Notes under the pieces: generated by a model | What the model saw: only the letters and a program-made list of their open reading frames with translations | Databases searched by the model: none | Told to the model about the DNA's origin: nothing | Translations under genes and position numbers: made by a program | NCBI GenBank assembly: GCA_046293555.1 | Contig: JBKBOT010000005.1 | Location: 1-12,445, forward strand | DNA length: 12,445 nt | Source of the DNA: Pyrobaculum sp. | GTDB lineage: Archaea; Thermoproteota; Thermoprotei; Thermoproteales; Thermoproteaceae | Direction of reading: 5' to 3' | Shown here: positions 1-12,445 of the stretch, piece after piece | How the letters are laid out: every line of letters starts with the position of its first letter | Position numbering within the stretch: the first letter of the stretch is position 1

Positions 1-789
1 AGTGATGGCGCCGCTGGGACAACTGGCAGCAAGCCTCTCGGGATCGATCTCCCCGGCCTCCACCTTCTTTCTAAACAGCTCCTGATCTACATCCGGCGCG
101 CCCACCCACACCCCAATAAAGCCGAAGTCGGCACGGTGGACCGCTCTGGCGCAGTCAAATGGACAGCCGGAGAACTTAGCCTTGAACTTAAATGGGAACA
201 ACTGGTTTCCCAACCACTCGTGGATTTGCGGATGTGTTAAGAAGTAGTCTCTTGCGGCCAGGGTGTCATATAGCGCGAACTCGCATAGGGCGGGGCCCAC
301 ACAGGCCGCCAGCTCTCTTATCGTGTCGCCAGTACCCCCCACGTCTGTCCCCACCACATCTCTCAAGTAGTCAACTGCCTCGTCTGCCACCTCAGGCCTT
401 ATGGAGATAATCATCTGCCCCTGCTGGCCTGCCAGTTCTATCAGCCCAAGGCCGTACCTGTCTGCAAAATCCATCAGCTTCTTTAGCTTCTCTGTGGCGT
501 ATAGATAGCCAGAGGGCTGCCACACCCTGAAGTGTAGCTCCGCAATCGTGCCGTCTTTGGTACGCCGGGCGATAAAGCCGGTGTAGACATAACGTATTTT
601 CGCAGAGCCGGCTGCCCACATGGTCTTTCTAGCCGCCAGCCCCGCGGCGTATGCCTCTATGGGGTACTTGGTCTTCTTGAGCTCTGTGACGTGACTAGGC
701 CAGGGTCCCCCTTCATAATATTCAAGCAGCTCCATCCCCCTCTTGGCGTAGTCCTCCACCCGCTCCCCCTGCCTCTGGCTTGAAGCCAT
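1..789 (-). CDS. dsrA: Dissimilatory sulfite reductase alpha subunit, N-terminal 263 aa (continues past left edge)
   Basis: Not in the ORF track. Hand translation from ATG at 789 is open to base 1: MASSQRQGERVEDYAKRGMELLEYYEGGPWPSHVTELKK...HFRVWQPSG...DVGGTGDTIRELAACVGPALCEFALYDT...FPFKFKAKFSGCPFDCARA...CPSGAIT. It has the DsrA GPWPS motif, the siroheme-[4Fe-4S] motif CX5C (CVGPALC)...CX3C (CPFDC), the FPxKFKxK motif and the start of the ferredoxin domain. Confidence 0.95.
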   Translation of the reverse strand, partial: MASSQRQGERVEDYAKRGMELLEYYEGGPWPSHVTELKKTKYPIEAYAAGLAARKTMWAAGSAKIRYVYTGFIARRTKDGTIAELHFRVWQPSGYLYATEKLKKLMDFADRYGLGLIELAGQQGQMIISIRPEVADEAVDYLRDVVGTDVGGTGDTIRELAACVGPALCEFALYDTLAARDYFLTHPQIHEWLGNQLFPFKFKAKFSGCPFDCARAVHRADFGFIGVWVGAPDVDQELFRKKVEAGEIDPERLAASCPSGAIT

Positions 790-871
790 GGCTGAAACAC
801 GTTATGAAAAAATAAGACTTATTCTACATTTTTGGTAATAATGGTAAATAAGTATAAATGTGTTGGCTTTT
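790..871. promoter_or_regulatory. AT-rich divergent promoter region dsrA / hemD
   Basis: On the minus strand, CTTATT (816-811) lies 22-27 nt upstream of the dsrA ATG, preceded by AATAA. On the plus strand, TAAATA (845-850) lies 27 nt upstream of GTG 872. Contains the palindrome AATAAG-A-CTTATT (811-823). Confidence 0.7.
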
Positions 872-1615
872 GTGTGCAGGTGGACTGTGGTGATAACCTC
901 CGGGAGGCCCTCCAAGGCCGAGCTGTTAGCCAGGCTTGTACTTAAGGCAGGTTGCGACGTGGTCTATCTGCCGGCGGTAGAGGTGGAATCCGCCGAGTTG
1001 GGAGATGTGGCCGAATTAATGAGGTGGGCCGAGGTGGTTATCTTTCTCACAGGCCAGTCGGTATGGGGCCTTGCAGAGGGGTTAAAGGCGGAGGCGCTAC
1101 GTGAAAAAGTGGTATTGTGTAGGGGAAGCAAGGCTGCCGGCAACGTCAAAACCTATTTCGGCATTAACTGTATCAACGTGGGGGAAACCACAGAGGGGTT
1201 ACTGAGGGCAGATATCTACAGCGGGAGGAAGGTGTTAATCTCTTTCTACGGCGTGGTAGATCAAGAGCTTGTAGAAAAGATTAGAGAGAAGGCGGCTGAG
1301 GTGAGGGTGGTACAAGCCTACCGCACTAAGGCGACCCCTAGGGAAAACGCCATAGAGGCCGCAAGAAGGGCGGCGGCTGGGGGCCACATTTTGGTCTTCA
1401 CAAGCGCCCTAGGGGCCTCGGCCTTTTTCCAGACAGCAAAAGAGGTGGGGCTGTTAGAGGCGGTGGTGGATGCCGTCAATAGCGGCAAGTCGAAAATTGC
1501 GGCTATAGGGCCTGTGACCGAGAGGGAAGTTAGAAAATACGGCGTGGCGGAAGTAATTAAGCCAGAGAAGCCCTTCCTGTCCTATCTAGCTCAAGAACTT
1601 GCGAAGTTGTTTTGA
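872..1615 (+). CDS. hemD: Uroporphyrinogen-III synthase (HemD family)
   Basis: HemD-like motifs VVITS, VIFLTGQSV, LCRGSK, AYRT, LVFTSA, AAIGPVT, IKPEKP. Adjacent to siroheme-dependent dsrA. The ORF track starts at 860; GTG 872 fits the TATA spacing better. Confidence 0.8.
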   Translation: MCRWTVVITSGRPSKAELLARLVLKAGCDVVYLPAVEVESAELGDVAELMRWAEVVIFLTGQSVWGLAEGLKAEALREKVVLCRGSKAAGNVKTYFGINCINVGETTEGLLRADIYSGRKVLISFYGVVDQELVEKIREKAAEVRVVQAYRTKATPRENAIEAARRAAAGGHILVFTSALGASAFFQTAKEVGLLEAVVDAVNSGKSKIAAIGPVTEREVRKYGVAEVIKPEKPFLSYLAQELAKLF

Positions 1616-2238
1616 ATAATAACGTCGATAATTCTCCCCCCTGGAGAGACGTGGGCCTTTATGCCGTATTTCTCCAAGGCCACGGCGGGCCCCGCCGCCA
1701 CCACCACGGCGTTTTTCAAAACGTCAAGTTTAACCTCGGCGACAGCCGCCGCGGCCAGCCCGCTGAAGAAGACGTAAATCCCCCCAGGCGGCAGGGAGGT
1801 TAAGACGTCGCGGCGGGGTACAGCCCGATATGTAAAAAACTCGTAGACTCTACAGCTCTCCACAAGCGCCTCTGCCCTCTCGCCGTGGTGGAAAACCGTG
1901 GCGGCCACACAGCTGCTCACGGCGGCGGCTAGCTCCTCCGCGCTGTGGTAAACCAGCTGCGGCTTGACTCCAAAGACGTTTTGTATCATGACGGCGCCTT
2001 TGTCTCCCTCCGCCGTGGCCACCCTTTTGTTTCTCAAATCTAGCCACACCCCCTCCTCCCTCAGCCTATAGGCAGAACAGCCGGAGCCAAAGACCGCCAA
2101 GTCGCTTTCCTCCACTGCCTTAGCCACAGCCAGTCTGTCTATAGGCTCTGGCTGTAGTTCCAACACTGGGGCGACCACCACCTCTCTGAATACCCGTCTA
2201 AACGCCCCGCCGGCTTTCTCGCTAGTTACTACAATCAC
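1591..2238 (-). CDS. Divergent, shortened HemD-like paralog (215 aa)
   Basis: Colinear HemD-type motifs IVVTS, APVLELQP, VFGSG, TYRAVP, VFFSG, VVAAGP..ALEKYGI. The GTG start overlaps the upstream stop (GTGA, 2238-2235). Confidence 0.65.
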   Translation of the reverse strand: MIVVTSEKAGGAFRRVFREVVVAPVLELQPEPIDRLAVAKAVEESDLAVFGSGCSAYRLREEGVWLDLRNKRVATAEGDKGAVMIQNVFGVKPQLVYHSAEELAAAVSSCVAATVFHHGERAEALVESCRVYEFFTYRAVPRRDVLTSLPPGGIYVFFSGLAAAAVAEVKLDVLKNAVVVAAGPAVALEKYGIKAHVSPGGRIIDVIIQNNFASS

Positions 2239-2483
2239 GAGACGCCAATTTTTTCACAGATAGATAACATTTTCAAAGGCCCTATGGGCTTAGCTCCCGG
2301 CCTTATGTCGCCTGGTAGATATGTACAGACGTAGATATCCCACCCGGGGGGCACCTCGGCCTTTCTCCCCTCTCCAGCTAGAATTATCGCCATGTCTCCC
2401 ACATCTCTAAACACCTCCAGTAGCCTCCCGTCGAGATTGGGGGATAGGACCAATAGGCAGAGGGTGTATTTCTTCTCCGTCAC
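2235..2483 (-). CDS. Small DsrE/DsrF-like putative sulfur-relay protein (about 82 aa)
   Basis: GTGA overlaps at both ends (2483-2480 with the tusA stop; 2238-2235 with the next gene) support a real gene. The pattern LCLLVLSP / IILAGEG / IYVC / GAKPIG resembles DsrE/F beta-strand motifs (inference). Alternative TTG start at 2501. Confidence 0.55.
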   Translation of the reverse strand: MTEKKYTLCLLVLSPNLDGRLLEVFRDVGDMAIILAGEGRKAEVPPGWDIYVCTYLPGDIRPGAKPIGPLKMLSICEKIGVS

Positions 2484-2713
2484 TTCGTTCTCTTGATCCA
2501 AAATCTAATCCACCCGCCCTCTAGCTCCTCTATTTTCATAATTTCGTTTTTTGTGAACTTTGCCCAAACCCTTAGATCTTCTTTAGCGCATACGTCGTCA
2601 GTTATTATCTCCAATATGCCGCCTACTGGCACCTCAGAGAGCTCCCTATTTACAAGCACAGGCCCTAGGCAGTGAGACCCCGAGATCTTTATAGATCTGT
2701 GAGGGGCGTCCAT
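2480..2713 (-). CDS. tusA: TusA/SirA-family sulfur carrier protein
   Basis: 77 aa. GSHCLGPV (variant of CPxP), GGILEIITDD, EDLRVWAK and C-terminal RFWIKR match the TusA pattern. Confidence 0.8.
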   Translation of the reverse strand: MDAPHRSIKISGSHCLGPVLVNRELSEVPVGGILEIITDDVCAKEDLRVWAKFTKNEIMKIEELEGGWIRFWIKRTK

Positions 2714-2789
2714 ATGACGCCCCAGTTATGTAGTAATAAAGGTTGTTAACTAGGTGGTTGGTAACATATTTTAGCGCCATTTCTTCTCT
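2714..2789. promoter_or_regulatory. Divergent promoter region tusA operon / DUF1152 gene
   Basis: Minus-strand TTTATT (2740-2735) lies 22-27 nt upstream of the tusA ATG. Two GTTnnnAAC elements at 2742-2750 and 2757-2765. Plus-strand CATATTTTA (2765-2773) upstream of ATG 2790. Confidence 0.7.
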
Positions 2790-3719
2790 ATGGCTCTCCA
2801 CCTGGCTATTGGGGGCGGTGGGGATGTGGTCATGGCCGCCGTGTTGGCTGGAGGCGGCGAGGTGGGGCACATCCCGTGGGAGAGATATACGGTAGACCCA
2901 GAGCCCGGGCCGGTGCCGCTGTCTAGTTTTATAAACGCCGCGGTTTTTGACGACGGGGTGGCTATCGCCACTGGGGGTTCCCACGTGGAAAGAGGCGGGA
3001 GGAGGTTTAAAACTCAGGGCATCTGTGTGGCTGAAACTTTGGGAAAATCTATCTACGTTGTTGATAGCTATCTGCCCCCGTCGAGGCTGGCTAGATCTCT
3101 AGCCCGCTTTAAGAAGGTGGTGGGTGTCGACGTTGGTGGAGACGTCTTGGCTGTAGGCTGCGAGGAGGAAGTGGGAAGCCCCCTGTCTGACGCCTACGGG
3201 CTAGCCCTATTGGCCATGTTGAAAAAACTGGGGGTAGAGACAGAGGTTGTGGTCATGTCCCCAGGCGCCGACGGGGAGTTAGATAGGGAGTACTTCCTCC
3301 AGAGGGCGGCAGAGGTGGCCAGAATGGGGGGCTTCCTGGGCTCTGTGGGCCTATCTAAAGGACAGCTGGAGCTCCTCTCGGCTTTAACGCGGCGTTGTGT
3401 CACAGAGGCCTCCACAGCTGCCGCCAGGGCGGCCTTTGGGGAGTGGGGGGAGTTTCCCATTAGGGGCGGGGCGCGGCGTGTGAAGATAGACCTTTTCTCC
3501 ACCGTGGGGTTTAGGTTTGACCCAGAGGCGTTGCTTAAAGTAAACAAGGCGGCCCGTATTGTATATGAGAGAGACGCCTCGATGGACAAGGCGGCGGAAC
3601 TCCTCCTGGCTGCAGGCATCCCCACGGAGTGGCACCTAGAGACGTTATTAAGCAAGGGCGTGGAGTATAAAGACGCCGTCTCTACCCTAAAAAAACTTAA
3701 GAGATGCCACAATGTGTAA
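2790..3719 (+). CDS. DUF1152 family protein
   Basis: 309 aa with GGGGD near the N-terminus, GVDVGGDVL, SPLSDA, PGADGEL and TEAS motifs typical of DUF1152. Confidence 0.75.
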   Translation: MALHLAIGGGGDVVMAAVLAGGGEVGHIPWERYTVDPEPGPVPLSSFINAAVFDDGVAIATGGSHVERGGRRFKTQGICVAETLGKSIYVVDSYLPPSRLARSLARFKKVVGVDVGGDVLAVGCEEEVGSPLSDAYGLALLAMLKKLGVETEVVVMSPGADGELDREYFLQRAAEVARMGGFLGSVGLSKGQLELLSALTRRCVTEASTAAARAAFGEWGEFPIRGGARRVKIDLFSTVGFRFDPEALLKVNKAARIVYERDASMDKAAELLLAAGIPTEWHLETLLSKGVEYKDAVSTLKKLKRCHNV

Positions 3720-5054
3720 CACCTTCTGTATCACCTCCGTCGGGCTTCTCCCCAATACTGTAATCACGGGCTCTTTCCCCCAGTCCCCCCAATCTACTAT
3801 AAGGTCTGGCGTCTTGCCGCCAGTTTGTCTATACGCCTCCTCTACAATCCACCCCATTGTTGCCCCCTCCCTCCTCTTGACCTCTTCAGGCTCTAGCCTC
3901 CTGTCTATATAGGCTATTGTATACCCCGCCGCCTTAGCTCTCTCTATATACTCTTCTCTCAGCCTTATGTTCATAGCCGCCCTTATGTCGGGATCTCTTT
4001 TTAACACAGCCAAGATCTTTCTGGCCACGTGGTCACTTGCCCCAAAGGCCGGGGGGCCTGAGGGCTTGGCTTTCCCCATATAGTTCACAATTCTGCCAGG
4101 CACTGCGGCCACGTCTTCTTTGTTTTGAGCATATCTGGGGTTAATCGCATAGCCGAGATTGCTCTGTACTTCTGGAATGGCGCTTGCTAACAAATCGCCA
4201 TGTTTTTCCACAAGCTCTAGCGCTTTGGTTATCTCTTGGTATACACGCCACCTTTCAGCCGATATCTCAACCCACGCCGCGGGGTTCACCGGCCAGTGCC
4301 CCTTGCCTCTAGCTACCCCGTATTTAATAGCGGTGTAGATAAACTCCTTTGCCGTCTTTATGGCCTCCAGCGGGTCCAGCCCCTTGGCTAGCCCCGCGGC
4401 TATGGCTGCAGAGTAGGCACAGCCAGTGCCGTGTGTAGCTCTGGAGTCAAGTCTCGGCGTCTTGAGGTGGTGGAAAGCCCCCTGGCGGTACACCACGTCT
4501 ATAGCCTCGTCGGTCTCGAGATGGCCGCCCTTCACCACCACTGTGTCTACGCCGTATTCCCTATGGATGTACCCCGCGGCTTTCTCCGCGTCTTTGAGAG
4601 ACCTTATCTCAAAACCCGCCAGCCTCTCTGCCTCGTGTCTATTTGGGGTCACCACCCTGGCGGTGGGGAGCAGCCGCCTTTTTAACACCTCCACTGCGTC
4701 TTGATCTATCAGCGGGGCGCCAGATTTAGCCACCATCACTGGGTCCACCACAAGGGGGAAGCCCAGAGACCTGGCTGTGTCTGCCACCACCTCTATGAGC
4801 TCTCTAGTGCCCAACATGCCGGTTTTCCCCGCGTCTATCCCCATGTCGTCCCACACGGCTACGATCTGTTCCCTCACTAGAGCTGGGGGTAAACACTCCA
4901 CGGCCCTCACCTCATATGTATTCTGCGCGGTGACGCAGGTAAGCGCCGTGGCTCCATGGACGCCAAATGCGGCAAAAGTCTTCACGTCTGCATGTATGCC
5001 AGCCCCGCCGCCGGAATCTAGCCCAGCTATTGTGATGGCCACCCGCCAAGACAT
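3687..5054 (-). CDS. thiDN: Bifunctional HMP/HMP-P kinase - thiamine-phosphate synthase (ThiD-ThiN fusion)
   Basis: ThiD motifs TIAGLDSGGGAGIHAD, TAQNT, KTGML, VDPVMVAKSG, TPN, KGGH, HGTGC. C-terminal ThiN motifs IPEVQSN, VAAVPGRI, FGASDH, GDWGKEP. Confidence 0.95.
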   Translation of the reverse strand: MSWRVAITIAGLDSGGGAGIHADVKTFAAFGVHGATALTCVTAQNTYEVRAVECLPPALVREQIVAVWDDMGIDAGKTGMLGTRELIEVVADTARSLGFPLVVDPVMVAKSGAPLIDQDAVEVLKRRLLPTARVVTPNRHEAERLAGFEIRSLKDAEKAAGYIHREYGVDTVVVKGGHLETDEAIDVVYRQGAFHHLKTPRLDSRATHGTGCAYSAAIAAGLAKGLDPLEAIKTAKEFIYTAIKYGVARGKGHWPVNPAAWVEISAERWRVYQEITKALELVEKHGDLLASAIPEVQSNLGYAINPRYAQNKEDVAAVPGRIVNYMGKAKPSGPPAFGASDHVARKILAVLKRDPDIRAAMNIRLREEYIERAKAAGYTIAYIDRRLEPEEVKRREGATMGWIVEEAYRQTGGKTPDLIVDWGDWGKEPVITVLGRSPTEVIQKVLHIVASLKFF

Positions 5055-5083
5055 AAGTACCTAATCTTTTCTAGATAAAAACT

Positions 5084-5791
5084 TTACCGTCTTATCTCGC
5101 GGAGAAGCGGAATTTCTCTCAACATGTCCTCAGAGACGTAACTCCAGTAAATCCCAGTGGGCTTTCTATCCACACGACGTGTGTAAATAACCTCCCTGCT
5201 CGTGGCCACAATGTCTACAACTAGGTCGAATGGCTCTAGCGGAATCTCCTCTTCTACCAGCTGGAGGGGGTGCACGGTGGTAGCCACCGGCGTGTTTTCA
5301 CTAACTTTTCCAAACGTGTAGAGAATACCCCACTCGATTTCTGAATATCCATGCGATTTGCCCACACGGCGGCCGGTATGGGGATTTACGGCAACAGACC
5401 CGACGACAACTAGGTCTACGGGAGGGATCTCCCAAGGCTTGACCGGCCTCCCCCATTTGAACATGCCGGAAATAGTTGACGCCTCGCGGTAAGCCCCTAT
5501 GGTCGAGGGGTCTAACAGGTAGAACCCCTCTCTAATTCTCGGCGTGGGCACAATTAACAGCTTGCCTCCAGACAGGGCGGCGTGGCGGCAATATCTCTGC
5601 GGCGCGTCTGGATTTATCTTCACAACTCTAGCCCTCCGAAACTCCACAGTGGAGGCCAACTGTCTACAGGCCTCTTCAGAGTTCTTAAAATTGGGAATCC
5701 GCCCGTAGACGGGACGGGGGAAGTCAGCCACGCCCCTCTCTTCAAGAAGTCTCCAAATTCTCTCCCTAATAGACTGTTTCACATCTTTCAC
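5084..5791 (-). CDS. 5-formyltetrahydrofolate cyclo-ligase paralog (COG0212 / MTHFSD-like)
   Basis: KQSIRERIW, FPRPVYGRIPNF, KINPDAPQ, VPTPR, DLVVVGSVAV, GRRVGK.HGYSEIEW, TTVHPLQ, DLVVDIV. TATA-like TTTTATAT on the minus strand at 5817-5810. Confidence 0.88.
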   Translation of the reverse strand: MKDVKQSIRERIWRLLEERGVADFPRPVYGRIPNFKNSEEACRQLASTVEFRRARVVKINPDAPQRYCRHAALSGGKLLIVPTPRIREGFYLLDPSTIGAYREASTISGMFKWGRPVKPWEIPPVDLVVVGSVAVNPHTGRRVGKSHGYSEIEWGILYTFGKVSENTPVATTVHPLQLVEEEIPLEPFDLVVDIVATSREVIYTRRVDRKPTGIYWSYVSEDMLREIPLLREIRR

Positions 5792-5860
5792 AAGAAGTAT
5801 AGAGGGTTAATATAAAACGCCCCGATAGACATGTCGTGTTGGCTTGCGGCTCTATTTGAG

Positions 5861-6916
5861 TCATGCGAGTGGTGGGTGTGGAGCCAACAGGAGGACATAT
5901 ATGCCGACTGCTATAAACACCATGGCGCCTATGGGTAGTGCCAGTTTTATCCATTCTCTAAATCCTATTAACAACACGCCTGCGAGAACGATGTTAGGCA
6001 CGTTGCCGGGAATAGTTAGGCCTCCTGATAGCACTAGTGAAATCAAGAAACTCCTCAAGACCTCTACCTCCATTTCTGGAGTTACTAACGCCGCCACTAG
6101 GGTGGCGTTGTCTGCCACAGCCGAGAGGAGGCCGAAGATGTATAAAACCTCCTTGCCGAATCCGGCCACCACAGAGGCTAGAGGTTTGAAGAACTCTCCC
6201 AAAATCGTGAGGGCGAAGATAAATAGAAATATCTTAAACGCCCGTATGAAGACCTCTCGTAACTCGGGCTCGTAAGGCTCTATCTCCACTCCAAGCTTGT
6301 GTAGTCTCTTGAGTGTAATATAGGCATAGATGGCGAAAAACAGAACTATTATGGCCACGGCGTCTAGAAGCACGTGCACCAGGTAGAAAAATCCTTGTTT
6401 GAGTTTAGCCACCGCGATGGTAGATAGCGGCTCGCCGATAGGTAACAACGCGGCGCCGGCGCCTATGGCGAAAGCTCCATATACCGCAGCTCTCGCCTTG
6501 TATTCATGCGGGGCTTTTGCAAAACCCAGAAGTTCTGCCAACACCGCCGCCGCCACGATGGCTGAAATCACGCTACTTGACATGCCAAATAGAAATATCA
6601 AGATGGCTAAAACGGCGGGTTTCGCTATGACGTCCGCCTTTACGGCTAGCTTATCTCTAAAGTAATAAAACGTCAACCCAGCTATCAACACCACCTGCGT
6701 AATTCCAATAGGGATATAGCCCAACCCCGGCTGGTAGACTGCAACTGGGTGGAGGAGGGCCTCTTTAAGTAATGAAATACTCCAAAGGCCGCCGATAGTT
6801 GCCGCAATTAGCGACATCACGAAAAAGAAGGCCTCCAGGTTGTGTTCTACCTTTTTCGACACCAGCGGTGGGACTAGTAGCAACACTAAGAAGACCACTT
6901 GGAGTAGGAGATCCAT
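5861..6916 (-). CDS. DUF1646 family membrane protein, putative ion transporter (IT superfamily-like)
   Basis: 351 aa, highly hydrophobic. KKVEHNLE, SSVISA, GAALLPIGEPLSTI, SAVADNATL, GGLTIPGNVPNI. Confidence 0.75.
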   Translation of the reverse strand: MDLLLQVVFLVLLLVPPLVSKKVEHNLEAFFFVMSLIAATIGGLWSISLLKEALLHPVAVYQPGLGYIPIGITQVVLIAGLTFYYFRDKLAVKADVIAKPAVLAILIFLFGMSSSVISAIVAAAVLAELLGFAKAPHEYKARAAVYGAFAIGAGAALLPIGEPLSTIAVAKLKQGFFYLVHVLLDAVAIIVLFFAIYAYITLKRLHKLGVEIEPYEPELREVFIRAFKIFLFIFALTILGEFFKPLASVVAGFGKEVLYIFGLLSAVADNATLVAALVTPEMEVEVLRSFLISLVLSGGLTIPGNVPNIVLAGVLLIGFREWIKLALPIGAMVFIAVGIYVLLLAPHPPLA

Positions 6917-7022
6917 AGGTTGTGCAAAAAGATAACATCTTTTAAAGTTGATTACGGCTCCCCTTGTGCCGTATTAAAAAATTTTCGGTATAGAGTTTAA
7001 ATAGTTGTGGGTTTTGGGGGTC
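6917..7022. promoter_or_regulatory. Divergent promoter region DUF1646 / APC permease
   Basis: TTTAAA (6941-6946) lies 25-30 nt upstream of ATG 6916. TTTAAATA (6996-7003) lies 27 nt upstream of GTG 7023. Inverted repeats at 6927-6943 and 6953-6973. Confidence 0.7.
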
Positions 7023-8396
7023 GTGGAAAACACCTCTGAGGAGCCGCCAGATAGGCGGCTAAAAAGAGTCTTGGGAGTTTTTGACACATATGCGTTAGTT
7101 CATGCAGACGTACAGAGCACGTTTTACTTCTTGGCAGGCTTCATCGCGCTGGCGGCTGGGGGATTTGCGTTCCTAAGTACCATATATGGCGTCTTGTTGT
7201 TAGCAGCCATAGCGCTGATTTATGGAGAGATGGCCGCACGATTCCCAAAAGCGGGGGGCTCTTATATTTACGTCACATATGCCTTCGGCGGGGCGGCTGG
7301 ATATCTCGCCGCCTGGCTATTAGCGCTTGACCAAGCCATCATGATTGGCTACGGCGTGATTGACGCGGCTAAGATCTTCAACAAGGTGTCTGGACTCTCA
7401 GAGGTGGGGCTCGCCGTTGTTTTCTCAACGGCGATTTTCGTCCTCACGCTACTTGGCGTCAAGAAGTCTGCAAACGTGGCAAAGACCTTTGCCGCCATGG
7501 ACTTAGCCCTCGTGGCGACATTGATCGCAACCGCGCTGGCTTTACACCCGGCGTCCCCGCCGTTCTTCAAGTGGGGCGGCATAGAGGGGGTCAACTTGCT
7601 GCTAGCCTTCTCCCTCCTATCTAGGGGGTTTACCGGCATAGACGCGGTGGGCCAGCTGGCTGGGGAGGTAAAAAAGCCCCGCGTCTATATACGTAGGGCC
7701 ATGTGGACACTTGTGGCTATAGGCGCCATCCAGGGCCTCGGACTTATGGCTGCAATAACCTCAGCCCTCACCCCGACAGAGCTTAAAGACCCCGCGATAG
7801 CCCCTCTGTACCTGGCGGAAAAGATACACCCAGCTGTGTTTTACCTCATGGCTTTTAACATCTTCGCCGTTATGTTAATGGCGGCGTTGACTGGATATCT
7901 GGCCTTCTCCCGCCTTCTATATAGATTTGCGGAATCCGGCCTCCTGCCGGAAGCCTTTTCTAGGCTTCATAACAGGTTCAAGACGCCATATATACCGCTG
8001 GCGCTAGCCTACCTAATATCGCTGACGCTAGTGTACATAGGGGAAGTCGAGGTGATCCTGGCCATATATGCCATAGGGTCGTTAATAAATTACCTCGTGG
8101 TGTCTCTAGCGTTGGCCAAAATGTCGAGGAGAGGTCTCAACACCTTCGCCGTTGGGGGATTTGTATGGGTTGCCGTCTTCCTAATCCCTCTAGGCATAGC
8201 GCTGGCGCTATTAGAAAAGTATAGATACATATGGGTCCTCGCCGTCTGGATGGCTATAGGCGCCGTCTTGTATAAACGGAGGTATGTCGTAGCCCTGTAT
8301 AGAAACCTAATAGATGTAAGCATGACGTCAATAAGGGCGATGCTAATTGCGGCTAGAAAAGAGCTTTTCTATCTGCAAAGAGGAAGGCGGCTATAG
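7023..8396 (+). CDS. APC family amino acid permease
   Basis: About 12 hydrophobic segments; LKRVLG, YGEMAARFPKAGGSYIY, FTGID..QLAGEVKKP, SRLLY....GLLP..F..LH.RFKTP. The ORF track's TTG at 7005 abuts the TATA box, so GTG 7023 is preferred. Confidence 0.9.
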   Translation: MENTSEEPPDRRLKRVLGVFDTYALVHADVQSTFYFLAGFIALAAGGFAFLSTIYGVLLLAAIALIYGEMAARFPKAGGSYIYVTYAFGGAAGYLAAWLLALDQAIMIGYGVIDAAKIFNKVSGLSEVGLAVVFSTAIFVLTLLGVKKSANVAKTFAAMDLALVATLIATALALHPASPPFFKWGGIEGVNLLLAFSLLSRGFTGIDAVGQLAGEVKKPRVYIRRAMWTLVAIGAIQGLGLMAAITSALTPTELKDPAIAPLYLAEKIHPAVFYLMAFNIFAVMLMAALTGYLAFSRLLYRFAESGLLPEAFSRLHNRFKTPYIPLALAYLISLTLVYIGEVEVILAIYAIGSLINYLVVSLALAKMSRRGLNTFAVGGFVWVAVFLIPLGIALALLEKYRYIWVLAVWMAIGAVLYKRRYVVALYRNLIDVSMTSIRAMLIAARKELFYLQRGRRL

Positions 8397-8865
8397 TCTT
8401 GCCGTCTTTTATCGCACCTTTGTCTATCAGCTCTAAGACCTCCCTAGGGCTTAGGAGGGCCAACTCCATGTCTTCCTCTCCGGGATCTCTCTCGCCGACC
8501 CCCACGTGTTCTAGCTGGTTTGTGAAATATATCCTTACAAGCTCGTTGCTAACCCCGGGCGCGGGGTATATGTCAAGCATGTGGCTGAGCTGTAGCGGCT
8601 TATAGCCTGTCTCCTCTACCATCTCCCTCACGGCGGCCTCCTGTGGGTCTTCCCCAGCCTCCAGCGTGCCTGCCGGCATTTCTAAAGTCCACTGGCCTAG
8701 AGCTGGCCTAAACTGTTTTACCAAAATCGCCCTGTCGCCCAGTAGGGCCAATATCGCCACGGCGCCGGGGTGGACCAGGTATTCCCCCCAGACCGATCTG
8801 TCTCCCACACGGCGGGCTCTTTTGACAAGAGTAAACTTCCTCCCCCTGTAGATTATCTCATCCAC
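8353..8865 (-). CDS. Nudix hydrolase, ADP-ribose pyrophosphatase-like
   Basis: Nudix box GTLEAGEDPQEAAVREMVEETGY; HPGAV, KQFRP, downstream YPAPG and IKDGKT as in NudF-type enzymes. Confidence 0.9.
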   Translation of the reverse strand: MDEIIYRGRKFTLVKRARRVGDRSVWGEYLVHPGAVAILALLGDRAILVKQFRPALGQWTLEMPAGTLEAGEDPQEAAVREMVEETGYKPLQLSHMLDIYPAPGVSNELVRIYFTNQLEHVGVGERDPGEEDMELALLSPREVLELIDKGAIKDGKTIAAFLFADRKALF

Positions 8866-8932
8866 GGGCCCCTATTTATGCCATAGATAAAGATTTCTGA
8901 GAAGAGATATATCTCTATGTCGGCTTTCATCT
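8866..8932. promoter_or_regulatory. Divergent promoter region Nudix / SDR
   Basis: Minus-strand TTTATCT (8891-8885) upstream of GTG 8865. Plus-strand GATATAT (8906-8912) 27 nt upstream of ATG 8933, inside a 14-bp palindrome. Confidence 0.6.
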
Positions 8933-9628
8933 ATGCGGCTTGTGGGAAAAAACGTCGTAGTTGTAGGCGTCGGCCCCGGCTTGGGCTCCGCCGTGGTTTA
9001 CCTCCTGCTTAAAGAGGGGGCCTCTGTATACGCCTTCGCGCGAACTGTGGAGTTTCTCAGACAGCTCGAGGCCGAGTATTCAAGATATGGCTTTGTCAAG
9101 ACGGGGGCTAGGGACTTCTCCAAGCTACAGGAGACCCCCACGGAGGTGGACGGCGTGGTACACGGCTTGGTGGTAACCGCGGGGGGCTACGTCAGCGGCA
9201 GTATCGACGAGCTTAGAGAGGGGGAGCTAGAAGACATGTTGTCTCGTAACCTCAGGGCCCATCTCTATGCGGTGAAGGCCTTCCTCCCGTTGATGCGACA
9301 AGGCTCCTCCATAGTGCTCACCTCGTCTATAGGTGGGACGTATGCAGTCTGGCCTAGACACGTGGCTTATGTGGCCTCTAAGGCTGCCCTAGCCAAAGCC
9401 GTAGAGGCGCTGGCTGCAGAGCTGTTAGATAGGGGCATTAGGGTAAACGCCGTGGCGCCAGGCGGGATGACTAGAGACCTCAAGCCCGGGCGTGGATACA
9501 GCTTGGGTGACCCCCAGGCCCCGCCAGAAGAGGTGGCCAAGGTGGTTGTCTGGCTCCTAACTGAGGAGGCGAGTTGGGTGACGGGGGCAGTGATCCCAGT
9601 AGACGGGGGGAGGAGGTTTAAAAAGTAG
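8933..9628 (+). CDS. Short-chain dehydrogenase/reductase (classical SDR)
   Basis: GVGPGLG nucleotide-binding motif, catalytic Ser (TSS), YVASK (YxxxK), IRVNAVAPG, VTGAVIPVDGG. Confidence 0.92.
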   Translation: MRLVGKNVVVVGVGPGLGSAVVYLLLKEGASVYAFARTVEFLRQLEAEYSRYGFVKTGARDFSKLQETPTEVDGVVHGLVVTAGGYVSGSIDELREGELEDMLSRNLRAHLYAVKAFLPLMRQGSSIVLTSSIGGTYAVWPRHVAYVASKAALAKAVEALAAELLDRGIRVNAVAPGGMTRDLKPGRGYSLGDPQAPPEEVAKVVVWLLTEEASWVTGAVIPVDGGRRFKK

Positions 9629-9643
9629 GGCTTTTCCCCGCCC

Positions 9644-10597
9644 GTGGCTCTCCCCACGCTTGGGCCAATCGGCGTGGTGCCCGGCATTGTTTTAACTATC
9701 TTGTCTGGACTTCTGATCGAACAGCTGGTTCATTACATCTCGTGGCGCTACCAGAGGGCAGCTGTGGGGGTGGCCGCCATCTTCGCGCCGATAATAACGT
9801 CAAGCCCCGAGCTAGCTATATTCATCCTGGCGTTGTACTACGGCCATGTGGAAATCGCGTGGGGCTCTATCGTGGCGCAGCCCTTCATGGCCTCCACGGT
9901 GATATACCCCGTGGTGGTAATAACGGCGTTAGCCGCATGGGCGTTAGGAATGAGGCGGTATAGACTGCCCCACGTCCACAGGATTGTAGCTGTGCCCCTC
10001 CTGGTTTTCACCATCCCCCTTCTTCCCATCCTTTTTCTACACCCGGAGAGATATGGCATATACGGCCAGCTGTATGGACTGGGGCTTCTAGCTGTCTACT
10101 TCCTATATGCGAAATTCATGTTGAGAGAGGAGGAGGTAAAAAAAGCCGCCGCGCGGCTGTGGCTTAAACATCCAGCCCTACAGACTGTAGCAGCCATGGC
10201 CACTATATACCTCGGGGCTGAGTGGATTGTAGATGGGATAAAGGAGCTGGGAGCTGCCTTTGGGCTAGACAAGTTGGCCCTATCGGTAGTGCTCGTGCCT
10301 ATTGCCACCGTCGTGCCTGAATCCATCGTGGGCCTTATCTTTATAGCCAGGGGGAAAGACGACGAGGGCGTAGGCGTTATCGTGGGGGAGAAGGCTCTTT
10401 ATAGCACCTTCTACCCCGGCCTCGCCATGGCTCTGGGGGTATACAGCCTAGAGCCTGCGGCAGCCACGGCGTTAACTATAGCCATAGTGGTATCTCTACT
10501 AGAGGCCACGGCGGTTTGGTTTGGCTACTTTGGCCTCACGGCGCCCATAGGGCTGGCGGGCTATCTTTACTACCTACATAACGTCTTGGGGCTCTAA
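9644..10597 (+). CDS. CaCA (Na+/Ca2+ exchanger-like) membrane protein
   Basis: About 10 TM segments in two halves with alpha-repeat-like TSSPE and TVVPE motifs. TTTAAAAA (9617-9624) lies 27 nt upstream of the GTG. Confidence 0.75.
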   Translation: MALPTLGPIGVVPGIVLTILSGLLIEQLVHYISWRYQRAAVGVAAIFAPIITSSPELAIFILALYYGHVEIAWGSIVAQPFMASTVIYPVVVITALAAWALGMRRYRLPHVHRIVAVPLLVFTIPLLPILFLHPERYGIYGQLYGLGLLAVYFLYAKFMLREEEVKKAAARLWLKHPALQTVAAMATIYLGAEWIVDGIKELGAAFGLDKLALSVVLVPIATVVPESIVGLIFIARGKDDEGVGVIVGEKALYSTFYPGLAMALGVYSLEPAAATALTIAIVVSLLEATAVWFGYFGLTAPIGLAGYLYYLHNVLGL

Positions 10598-10625
10598 GTT
10601 TTAAAACCAGTCTTTTTATCCCTAT

Positions 10626-10877
10626 ATGCATAAAGACAAGTCGGTGGGCATTGGGCTTATGGCTGTAGGCATTGTGGGGATTCTGCTATACGGCTGGCTG
10701 TTATTCTTCTCGCCTTGGAGCCAGCTGGTTTTACAGTTGACAGCCTTTCTGGCCGTTGGGGGCGTTTTAGCCATATTGGCCTGGGTGGGCTACGCCCTAG
10801 CCACCACTCCGCCTCCAAAACCCATAGAGGAGATCGAGAGAGAGGTACAAAAGGCCCTAGAGGAAAGCCGGCAGTAA
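10626..10877 (+). CDS. Small 2-TM membrane protein with TTPPPKPIEEIE cytoplasmic tail, function unknown
   Basis: 83 aa, two hydrophobic helices plus a charged helical tail. Own TATA TTTTAAAA (10599-10606) 27 nt upstream of the ATG. Confidence 0.8.
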   Translation: MHKDKSVGIGLMAVGIVGILLYGWLLFFSPWSQLVLQLTAFLAVGGVLAILAWVGYALATTPPPKPIEEIEREVQKALEESRQ

Positions 10878-10879
10878 CG

Positions 10880-11776
10880 TCAAGATTTCTCTTTTTGTGT
10901 AGAGGGCTCCACGTGTACTGTCACCTCGCCGCCTAGTTCTCTTTTTAACACGTCTTCCACCCTGTCTGCAATCTCGTGTGCCTCTCTGACGGTAAGGTTT
11001 TCGTCTATGGCTATCACCACCTCTGCGTGATATATACTACCCGCCTTACGTATTTTTATAGATTTTACAGAATCTACCCCACCTATCTGCGACACCTTAG
11101 ATAACGCCCTTTTGGCCACCTCAGGGGGGGCGTAGTCCATTAGCTCCATCACGGTAGTTCTCAACAGCCTTAAGCTTAACGTCACGAAATATGTGGCTAT
11201 AACTGCCGCCAGCATTATGTCTACCAGAGGGCCCCACTGTGTGAAGAGCTGTGGCATATACTCCATGGCCACGTAGCCAAACACAAGAAATGTGAGTAGA
11301 GCCGACGTGGAGGCTAGATCTGTGGCGAAGTGGAGGGCATCTGCCTCCAGCGCTCTTGACACTCCTCTAAAACGCCTCAAGACAGTCACGCGGTTGTAGT
11401 CTATAAGGATCGCCGACGCCAGTATTGCCATAGAGAGGGGGGTGGGGACATAGGGCTCCCAGCTAATAGCCTTTTTAACTGCCTCATATGCCACAAAAAA
11501 GACCGAAGCTATGACGGCTAGCGACCCGCCGACGCCGCCAAGAGTCTCTGCCTTGTGGTGACCATATGGGTGTTCTAAATCTGGGGGCTTTAGGCTTACT
11601 CTCACCGCGATATAGGTGATAGCCACTGCCAGGAGGTCTACCGCAGAGTGTAACGCATCGGCCAGTACCGCCACAGACAGGCTCTGCGTCCACGCCAACG
11701 TTTTTAAGACGGCCACTAGGATGCCTGCAAGGAGGGATATAAAGGCGGCTCTCAGCTTATCCACGTCTCTCCACAC
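10880..11776 (-). CDS. Cation diffusion facilitator (CDF, FieF/CzcD-like) metal transporter
   Basis: ADALHSAVD (TM2), HPYGHHKAE, ADALHFATD (TM5), C-terminal dimerisation domain AHEIADRVE...VHVEP. The start may be GTG 11764. Confidence 0.92.
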   Translation of the reverse strand: MWRDVDKLRAAFISLLAGILVAVLKTLAWTQSLSVAVLADALHSAVDLLAVAITYIAVRVSLKPPDLEHPYGHHKAETLGGVGGSLAVIASVFFVAYEAVKKAISWEPYVPTPLSMAILASAILIDYNRVTVLRRFRGVSRALEADALHFATDLASTSALLTFLVFGYVAMEYMPQLFTQWGPLVDIMLAAVIATYFVTLSLRLLRTTVMELMDYAPPEVAKRALSKVSQIGGVDSVKSIKIRKAGSIYHAEVVIAIDENLTVREAHEIADRVEDVLKRELGGEVTVHVEPSTQKEKS

Positions 11777-12445
11777 ACCTGTCGGCAGCTCGTTTGAACT
11801 CCTTAACGGCCGCCGGGTTTTTCATAAGGGTGGTGCCAATTAACACCCCTTTGGCGTATAGCTCACACGCCTTCTCTACCTCCTCAACTCTAGACACGCC
11901 GCTCTCGATTATGAAATCCACGTCTCCCCGTAGCGCCTTGGCGATCTCAAAGGCTCTGGCTAGACTTACTTCAAGCGTCTTTAAATCCCGGGCGTTTATA
12001 CCCAACATATCCCCCCAGCTGGCGGCCTCTCGCGCGTCCTGAATGTTGTCCACCTCTACAATTGGCGTTATGCCCAGCCTTGAGGCATATTCGGCAAGCT
12101 CCATCGCCTTTTCTCTCCCCACAAGCCTATATATAATCAACACGGCGTCTGCCCCATAGCCAAAAGCCATATCTATCTGCCTCTTGTCAATTATAAAGTC
12201 TTTCATTAATACAGGCCTATAGGCTTTAGCCATGGGGATAAAACGGTAGTCTCCTAAAAACCAGATGGGCTCTGTCAACACAGAGAAGGCGGCGGCGTGG
12301 GGGTAAAGCTCCGAGAAGTAAACCCATGGCGGCAGATCTAGCCTAATTACGCCACGTGGAGAGGCCCTCTTATATTCCGCAATAATTCCAAACTCTCCTA
12401 ACGACTTGGCGAAATTTACAACTGGCGTCGTTCTCGCCGGAGGCA
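11757..12445 (-). CDS. trpC: Indole-3-glycerol phosphate synthase (5' end beyond right edge)
   Basis: The frame is open upstream of the ORF-track start, with the first full codon at 12443: PPARTTPVVNFAKSLGEFGIIAEYKRASPRG...FSVLTEP..F.G...PVLMKDFI...GADAVLII...GINARDL...IIESG...LIGTTLM. Confidence 0.95.
   Translation of the reverse strand, partial: PPARTTPVVNFAKSLGEFGIIAEYKRASPRGVIRLDLPPWVYFSELYPHAAAFSVLTEPIWFLGDYRFIPMAKAYRPVLMKDFIIDKRQIDMAFGYGADAVLIIYRLVGREKAMELAEYASRLGITPIVEVDNIQDAREAASWGDMLGINARDLKTLEVSLARAFEIAKALRGDVDFIIESGVSRVEEVEKACELYAKGVLIGTTLMKNPAAVKEFKRAADRCVERRG

Follow-up and report, generated by a model that had tools for sequence, protein, structure and literature searches.

The dsrA and tusA promoters

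We looked at the promoters of the dsrA and tusA genes in a 12,445-nucleotide (nt) stretch of Pyrobaculum sp. DNA (assembly GCA_046293555.1, contig JBKBOT010000005.1, positions 1 to 12,445), which is called the window over its whole length. An earlier note on this DNA had named the two genes and had proposed that a series of short words shared by their upstream regions marks a sulfur-reduction regulon. Both gene names were confirmed. Only the 5' part of dsrA lies in the window, as 263 codons on the minus strand (1..789) that continue outside it and contain the Pfam domains NIR_SIR and NIR_SIR_ferr; the best NCBIfam model for this 263-residue fragment is dsrA TIGR02064 (218.8 bits). The tusA-like gene (2480..2713, minus strand, 77 codons) heads an operon and matches Pfam TusA with 54.6 bits.

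The motif series was present as described. Upstream of the dsrA start codon (ATG 789-787, minus strand), CATAAC is found at 806-801 (-17..-12), between the TATA box and the start. The TATA box itself, CTTATT, lies at 816-811 (-27..-22) with an A/T run that extends to 807. It is preceded by GAATAA at 824-819, a block at the position of the transcription factor B (TFB) recognition element (BRE) in which AATAA occupies 823-819 (-34..-30), and further upstream by TTACCAA at 838-832 (-49..-43). On the same strand, the tusA start codon (ATG 2713-2711) follows CATAAC at 2730-2725 (-17..-12), the TATA box TTTATT at 2740-2735 (-27..-22), the BRE-position block GTTAACAA at 2750-2743, with AACAA at 2747-2743 (-34..-30), and TTACCAA at 2764-2758 (-51..-45). 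Three blocks are therefore equidistant from the two ATG codons and TTACCAA is shifted by 2 nt. No further promoter of the window has CATAAC or TTACCAA at these positions; counted on both strands of the window, CATAAC occurs 7 times (4.5 expected) and TTACCAA 3 times (1.4 expected). When the window was searched with AAYAA-N2-YTTATT-N4-CATAAC, allowing up to three mismatches, only the dsrA and tusA sites matched, a search that is circular because the pattern was taken from these same two sites.

The comparison covered about 109 kb of sequence around the dsr loci of six Pyrobaculum-like genomes, including the window. The five other loci, L001 to L005, belong to Pyrobaculum/Thermoproteales assemblies whose DsrA is 75-83% identical among the matches listed, none of which comes from the window's own genome. 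The six loci hold 121 predicted open reading frames (ORFs) of at least 90 codons, and 81 upstream regions with an A/T box were compared as 3240 pairs. An identical run of at least 6 bases in -21..-1 was seen in 20 of the 3240 pairs, an identity of at least 16/23 in -34..-12 in 5, and a common 7-mer upstream of -35 with a shift of at most 2 nt in 55; the run together with the upstream 7-mer was seen in none. The dsrA-tusA pair satisfies every one of these measures, run, identity and upstream 7-mer. Multiplying the rates and allowing for about 70-90 pairs per window, we estimate the chance of such a likeness at about 1%, and the likeness is real enough to call for an explanation. Promoter duplication was considered as its source and rejected: hemD1, the divergent neighbour of dsrA, is only 29% identical to the hemD2-like gene of L001, and the tusA-orf cassette is inverted relative to L005.

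A block at the BRE position of sulfur-class promoters

For a comparison of promoter classes, 123 candidate starts were passed through a TATA filter (at least 7/8 A/T at -27..-20), which kept 66; the 57 starts without an A/T box that were dropped are mostly those of operon-internal genes. The 66 promoters were labelled by the Pfam and NCBIfam content of their genes as 31 sulfur/sirohaem promoters (dsrA and paralogues, dsrC, dsrE, dsrE2, dsrK, dsrM, dsrN, aprB, sqr, tauE, a Sulf_transp (sulphur-transport) fragment, tusA and hemD) and 35 others. AAYAA stood exactly at -34..-30 in 14 of the 31 sulfur/sirohaem promoters and in none of the 35 others (p = 3.4e-6), and anywhere in -38..-28 in 21 of the 31 against 3 of the 35. 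The direction of this excess was identical in every locus. When the window was left out, with the motif fixed beforehand by the window, AAYAA was at -34..-30 in 12 of 28 sulfur-class promoters against 0 of 29. Its start positions in the sulfur class peaked at -34 (14 promoters) followed by -35 (4), with none of the others at -34, and the control word AAA in the same region made no difference between the classes (13/31 and 14/35).

A positional 4-mer scan led to the same place. Its top words were AATA at -35 (16 sulfur, 3 other) and TAAT at -36 (10, 0), both of them beyond the 5% family-wise threshold obtained by shuffling the labels 300 times, followed by GTTA at -38 (8, 0) and GTAA at -37 (7, 0). 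The only letters common in generic promoters were A at -31 and -30, and both classes have these. The sulfur class differed from the others by A at -34 (0.81 vs 0.34), A at -33 (0.71 vs 0.40) and G at -37 (0.52 vs 0.29), and its TATA box was of another flavour, with TATT at -24 in 10 sulfur promoters against 1 other. The sulfur-class consensus reads G-K-T-A-A-Y-A-A over -38..-30, and the block was found in at least one member of 13 of the 16 sulfur-class gene families. Four copies are present in the window, GAATAA (dsrA), GTTAACAA (tusA), GGTAATAA (hemD1) and GGTAACA (DUF1152). The conserved, sulfur-enriched element is the AAYAA block, which the earlier note had taken for a generic BRE. These results make plausible a shared promoter class with G-K-T-A-A-Y-A-A at -38..-30 in dsr, sulfur and sirohaem loci. 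The regulon idea thereby gains support as far as a class of sulfur-gene promoters is concerned, through the AAYAA block; the two words that had been proposed to mark it, CATAAC and TTACCAA, fail as such.

In dsrA, the BRE block and the TATA box together form a perfect 13-bp palindrome, AATAAG-T-CTTATT (823-811, minus strand; dyad score 5/5). Dyad scores were somewhat higher for sulfur promoters (3.19) than for the others (2.40). The dyad AAYAA-N3-TTATT was considered as an operator and discarded, AAYAA and TATT being unassociated within the sulfur class (counts 9, 11, 4 and 7). Both the dsrA palindrome and the higher dyad scores look like a by-product of A-rich blocks followed by T-rich ones. 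A palindrome like that of dsrA, TAATAA-CAT-TTATTA, was also noted in the dsrN promoter of L005.

Two further sulfur-class blocks with good A/T boxes were seen on the plus strand of L001 at 14195-14260, upstream of the Sulf_transp fragment (GTTAATAA-tgttatatttt and GTAAATAA-cgttttattatt). No start codon lies at the expected distance from them, and they could belong to a leadered transcript, a small RNA or a decayed gene.

Core promoter geometry

YTTATT and AAYAA had been read as the TATA box and the BRE, and both indeed sit where these genomes have their TATA boxes and BREs. A 20-nt BRE/TATA matrix, trained on 55 promoters from L001-L005 only and used to scan the window, agrees; with this matrix, a score of 8.9 is the 99.9th percentile over all positions. 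The best local match for dsrA (827-808, score 12.2) predicts a start at 789 and that for tusA (2751-2732, score 11.0) a start at 2713, both exact. Altogether, the matrix was exact at 6 of the 12 first-gene starts of the window, namely dsrA (789), tusA (2713), thiDN (5054), a permease (7023), a Na/Ca exchanger (9644) and a small membrane gene (10626). It was 1-4 nt off for 4 of the 12 (hemD1, Nudix, DUF1646 and DUF1152) and gave no match for the remaining 2, 5-formyltetrahydrofolate (5-FTHF) ligase and SDR. Nearly every first gene of the window has an A/T box at -27..-20: besides those described here, thiDN, 5-FTHF ligase, DUF1646, the permease (GTG 7023), Nudix, SDR, the Na/Ca exchanger and the small membrane gene. 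The profile of the 81 promoters shows A at -34, -33, -31 and -30.

The high combined matrix scores of dsrA and tusA are due to the BRE-position block. Scored with a TATA-only matrix trained on other genes, both TATA boxes were below average, dsrA ranking 60th and tusA 55th of the 66 promoters; with the same kind of matrix trained on sulfur genes, the ranks were 53 and 54 of 66. The wording "weak TATA boxes" of the earlier note is therefore fair. According to PMC2151090, which cites Slupska 2001, all ten mapped transcripts of Pyrobaculum aerophilum are leaderless and this mode was first shown there, and a passage of PMC6028130 puts the archaeal promoter box about 26 nt from leaderless starts. 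The geometry of the dsrA and tusA promoters is that of leaderless transcription, with putative start sites deduced from this geometry and from the cited papers.

TTACCAA and the divergent neighbours

TTACCAA had been proposed as an extra site for a transcription factor. Read on the plus strand, it belongs to the genes on the other side. hemD1 (872..1615, plus strand), divergent from dsrA, encodes a uroporphyrinogen-III synthase of the sirohaem pathway (Pfam HEM4, 89 bits; the NCBIfam uroporphyrinogen-III synthase models match below their cut-offs). The plus-strand word TTGGTAATAA (832..841), which takes in the reverse complement of the dsrA-side TTACCAA (832-838), contains GGTAATAA, the BRE-position block of hemD1 at -38..-31 from GTG 872; the hemD1 TATA box found by the matrix, TAAATAAG, follows at 845..852. 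The matrix match at 833-852 (TGGTAATAATGGTAAATAAG) scores 11.1 and predicts a start at 871, and a second one at 834-853 scores 9.4 and predicts 872, the GTG that agrees with the start of the L005 orthologue (V-A-R-W-T-V). On the tusA side, the divergent gene is that of a DUF1152 protein (2790..3719, plus strand; Pfam DUF1152, 279 bits, match from residue 3). Here, TTGGTAACA (2758..2766, plus strand), with the reverse complement of the tusA-side TTACCAA (2758-2764), contains GGTAACA, the BRE-position block of the DUF1152 gene, and the matrix match at 2756-2775 (GGTTGGTAACATATTTTAGC; score 8.3) predicts a start at 2794, the real ATG being at 2790.

In both spacers, then, the reverse complement TTGGTAA falls inside the matrix match of the neighbour (833-852 for hemD1, 2756-2775 for DUF1152), and TTACCAA fails as an additional site, being the neighbour's BRE-position block as it reads on the opposite strand. 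Its near-constant distance from the two ATG codons follows from the tight packing of two promoters into 82 and 76 nt. More generally, G[GT]TAA begins at -39..-37 in 10 of the 81 promoters, against 0.0014 per position overall, and the words enriched at -58..-50 (TATT, TTAT, ATTA) are the reverse complements of the blocks of back-to-back partners. No TTACCAA was seen upstream of the dsrA orthologues of L001, L002 and L003 or of the L005 tusA.

Exactly 82 nt separate the divergent starts in three pairs: 789/872 in the window (dsrA/hemD1), 13175/13258 in L003 (dsrE/dsrC) and 16678/16761 in L004 (an unknown gene/aprB). This spacing is close to the minimum room for two core promoters of 38 nt.

CATAAC

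CATAAC was the other word proposed as the site of a dedicated factor, and as a conserved site it did not stand up: the three intact dsrA orthologue promoters lack it and it is not enriched at the sulfur genes of the six loci. The dsrA comparison comprises these three intact orthologues (L001, L002 and L003), dsrA being disrupted in L004 and a pseudogene in L005, and the tusA comparison comprises one or two orthologous promoters, the start of the L005 tusA being ambiguous. At -17..-12, the dsrA orthologues read GAAAAC (L001), TCTAGG (L002) and TATATC (L003), so that none of the three has CATAAC there with at most one mismatch. Exact CATAAC at -17..-12 was absent from the 81 other promoters, and copies with at most one mismatch were present in 2 of the 81, against about 0.9 expected from a composition-based estimate: CATAAT at a 230-residue gene beside hemD in L001, and CACAAC at the L005 dsrK. 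The dsrK promoters of L001 and L003 do not have it. An L004 tusA/yedF-like gene, too short for the set of 81 promoters, has AATAAC at -17..-12. The unbiased positional 4-mer scan found no word in -22..-5 that separates sulfur promoters from the others (best p 0.07). Finally, the AAATAAC of the L005 tusA was set aside as a conserved CATAAC; counted from an alternative GTG start (8402), it lies at -35..-29 and is the BRE block. CATAAC is probably a coincidence or something particular to dsrA and tusA, rather than the mark of a regulon.

Other genes and promoter-like matches

Downstream of tusA, its operon continues with an 82-codon ORF of no known family (2235..2483, minus strand), whose start overlaps the tusA stop and whose stop overlaps the start of hemD2, the last gene (1591..2238, minus strand). 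The overlaps at both junctions read GTGA. hemD2 is a weak HemD-like paralogue (Pfam HEM4, 23.9 bits for a cut-off of 27.5) and is 55% identical to its L005 homologue; hemD1 and hemD2 are convergent in the window and overlap by 25 nt (1591-1615). Beside tusA, L005 also has a homologue of the 82-codon ORF (70% identity over 47 residues). The window and L005 carry the tusA-orf82 cassette in opposite orientations: tusA, orf82 and hemD2 are co-directional in the window (1591-2713), whereas in L005 (7970-9121) tusA is divergent from hemD2, at a spacing of only about 27-45 nt. The cysteine of the TusA-like protein stands in the context S-G-S-H-C-L-G-P in the window and in the L005 orthologue, and in C-P-Y-P in the L004 paralogue; the protein may represent a distinct TusA subfamily tied to dsr loci.

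L005 is the closest syntenic relative of the window, and its dsrA (9961-10360) is a pseudogene with an in-frame TAG in place of the CAG of the window (W-Q-P-S-G-Y). The match stops after residue 126, the upstream region has no A/T box at -27..-20, and dsrB, dsrC, dsrE and dsrK are still present. In L004 (7000-7260), the 5' end of dsrA is disrupted: the reading frame stops after M-T-Q-A-P-K-R-V and changes, and an unrelated ORF abuts the gene. This may be an assembly fault.

The top matrix score of the window, 13.9 (TCTGTAAAATCTATAAAAAT), was found on the minus strand at 11052-11071, inside a cation-efflux gene (10880-11776), with a predicted start at about 11033; it may be a promoter internal to the gene or A/T sequence that fits by chance. 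Another minus-strand match (12190-12209, score 12.1) lies inside the indole-3-glycerol-phosphate synthase gene, its predicted start at 12171 being beside an in-frame ATG at 12170. A third (6972-6992, minus strand, score 12.5, predicted start 6953) is located about 35 nt upstream of the DUF1646 promoter. Neither of these last two matches has a gene assigned to it.

The 230-residue protein of L001 (144-836, plus strand) belongs to no family and is encoded directly upstream of hemD, with CATAAT at -17..-12 of its promoter. A stretch of its sequence may be helix-turn-helix-like, and the protein is a possible regulator. Pfam gave nothing significant for it and PDB nothing up to E=10, and on these searches we did not retain it as the regulator.

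Interpretation

We consider it fairly probable that the dsrA and tusA upstream regions are back-to-back leaderless core promoters, with a sulfur-class block at the BRE position, a TTACCAA that belongs to the neighbour and a CATAAC that is coincidental or gene-specific. Each stretch would be a tightly packed divergent pair of core promoters, dsrA/hemD1 with 82 nt between the start codons and tusA/DUF1152 with 76 nt, and AAYAA would be the 3' part of the BRE-position block G-K-T-A-A-Y-A-A. Three of the four shared words then come down to a single promoter grammar, of which the window has four instances. A weak TATA box may be offset by an extended contact made upstream of it, and the genes with this contact would form one promoter class and might be co-regulated. 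Extending 10-11 nt upstream from the TATA box, the block goes further than a canonical BRE, which mildly supports such an extra contact. Candidate readers of the block are the general TFB, one of two TFB paralogues, or a factor abutting the TATA box; all Pyrobaculum genomes carry two TFB paralogues according to PMC3388794.

Several points weigh against this explanation. The labels sulfur and other, as well as some motif definitions, were set after inspection of the data, the orthologous promoters of six genomes are not independent, and the TATA criterion was used in picking the start codons of L001-L005. The comparison set is one without highly expressed housekeeping promoters, which leaves room for a block that is merely a strong BRE. 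The matrix scores of dsrA and tusA are inflated, about half of the training set being of the sulfur class. In addition, the -70..-40 region is more A/T-rich in the sulfur class (0.69 vs 0.54), and the DUF1152 block is 3-4 nt out of register, nearer to the start than usual. As for CATAAC, 3 of the 4 dsrA promoters keep its letters A (-16), A (-14) and C (-12), the last of which has a frequency of 0.35 in the sulfur class against 0.11 in the others. Moreover, among the 465 sulfur-sulfur pairs, only dsrA and tusA have 6 identical bases in a row in -21..-1, which makes pure chance an uncomfortable explanation for this word.

Taken a step further, in a reading that we hold to be rather unlikely, the block would be the cis-signature that unites dissimilatory-sulfur and sirohaem genes of Pyrobaculum-like Thermoproteales in a regulon, with CATAAC as a second, gene-specific operator of dsrA and tusA. 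The members of this regulon would include dsrAB and their paralogues, dsrC, dsrE, dsrK, dsrM, dsrN, aprB, sqr, tauE, tusA and hemD, and perhaps the DUF1152 gene; the block would abut a TATA box of the TTATT type, and its reader would be one of the two TFB paralogues or a dedicated factor bringing the basal machinery to weak TATA boxes. The opposite view, that there is no specific regulation, that the block is an optimal BRE for the general TFB at highly expressed energy-metabolism genes and that the other identities (CATAAC and the TT preceding GGTAA) are chance, is likewise rather unlikely, yet it has several observations behind it. In strong crenarchaeal promoters the BRE resembles GTAAAG, its key adenines being placed 3 and 6 nt before the TATA box. 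At 3-7 nt from that box on its upstream side, AAYAA falls within BRE range; both classes have A at -31 and at -30, thiDN in the window carries GGTAAAG, and about 0.5 shared hexamer is expected among the some 78 promoter pairs of a window (from 20/3240). However, the conserved letters extend to -37/-38, that is 10-11 nt upstream of the TATA box, with GTTA at -38 in 8 sulfur promoters against 0; AAYAA at -34 is found in 0 of the 35 other promoters; the sulfur-class TATA flavour differs (TATT at -24, 10 vs 1); and dsrA and tusA have weak TATA boxes, not strong ones. The model of the earlier note, in which CATAAC and TTACCAA are two sites of a dedicated factor that aids weak TATA boxes in a sulfur-reduction regulon, now appears improbable. 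It accounts for two words that are exact in both promoters (the combination of run and 7-mer being seen in 0 of 3240 pairs), for TATA boxes that rank 60 and 55 of 66, for CATAAC as the only such 6-base run among the sulfur-sulfur pairs, and for the near-copies of CATAAC at the L005 dsrK, the L004 tusA/yedF-like gene and the L001 gene adjacent to hemD. It does not agree with the presence of CATAAC within one mismatch in only 2 of 81 promoters (about 0.9 expected) and in 0 of 3 intact dsrA orthologues, with the dsrK orthologues of L001 and L003 that are without it, with the lack of a discriminating word in -22..-5, or with a TTACCAA that is explained by the core promoters of the neighbours and is not found upstream of the dsrA orthologues or the L005 tusA.

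Two other explanations borrow from known archaeal systems. One is a bidirectional BRE-TATA-BRE promoter with a single TATA box, in which CATAAC (GTTATG on the opposite strand) would be an inverted BRE and TTGGTAA would lie at the divergent start site. Such promoters are documented in Pyrococcus furiosus with start sites about 50 bp apart (PMC6640164), and the plus-strand match at 796-815 (score 7.0) predicts a start at 834, inside TTGGTAA. At tusA, however, the reverse reading is below the listing threshold, and the positions -34, -33, -31 and -30 of GTTATG, where A is expected, are T, T, T, G for dsrA and T, A, G, T for tusA; hemD1 moreover has a better promoter of its own, in exact register with GTG 872. 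With a separate in-register promoter for each direction, the fit of this explanation is poor, and we regard it as very unlikely. The other is a SurR-like sulfur-response regulator acting on GTTn3AAC sites, as in Thermococcales, where the motifs and a position rule for activation or repression are documented (PMC12162507). Two GTTn3AAC words are present in the tusA/DUF1152 spacer, GTTACCAAC at 2765-2757 and GTTAACAAC at 2750-2742, and a perfect palindrome, GTTAATAAC, is present in the L005 dsrK promoter. Against this, GTTn3AAC is absent from the dsrA promoter and is not enriched in the sulfur class (3/31 vs 3/35), no SurR homologue turned up, no search aimed at SurR having been made, and the candidate 230-residue protein of L001 has no PDB or Pfam match, so that we give this explanation hardly any credence.

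Comparison with known systems

Our literature search turned up neither a regulon nor an alternative-TFB promoter class described for sulfur respiration in Thermoproteales, and no paper on a promoter motif of Pyrobaculum sulfur genes. Ordinary promoter grammar accounts for most of the finding in its first form, and two of its four words are explained away. What is new is a position-fixed block at the dissimilatory sulfur promoters of six Pyrobaculum-like genomes that is missing from the neighbouring genes, a modest lead. Such a defined cis-element would make the question of a sulfur-respiration regulon or an alternative TFB testable, and even if the block is only a strong BRE, it sharpens promoter models for the prediction of gene starts in leaderless genomes.

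The promoters described here share with the leaderless BRE/TATA promoters of P. aerophilum (Slupska et al. 2001, as cited in PMC2151090 and PMC6028130) the A/T box about 20-27 nt upstream. Adenines just upstream of this box, and the lack of room for a leader or a Shine-Dalgarno sequence, are also common to both. Unlike ordinary leaderless promoters, those of the dsr loci carry a longer, position-fixed block that is missing from other promoters of the same loci. Ptr2 of Methanocaldococcus and TFB-RF1 of Pyrococcus are activators that help weak core elements. Like the targets of these activators, dsrA and tusA have a weak TATA box (rank 55-60 of 66) next to an extended upstream element, the place to which factors of this kind bind; unlike in those systems, any reader of the block besides TFB is here only putative. 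The SurR regulon of Thermococcales (GTTn3AAC or GTTn3AACn5GTT; PMC12162507) resembles the present case by its set of sulfur genes and by a short A/T-rich word beside the TATA box, and some copies of our block fit GTTn3AAC. It differs in that this word is not enriched here and is absent at dsrA, and SurR comes from a different phylum. Finally, the BRE-TATA-BRE promoters of P. furiosus (PMC6640164) are comparable in their divergent transcription from a very short spacer, and the BRE and TATA box of dsrA are palindromic. In contrast to them, a separate BRE/TATA pair serves each direction here, in register with the start codon on that side, and CATAAC scores poorly as an inverted BRE.

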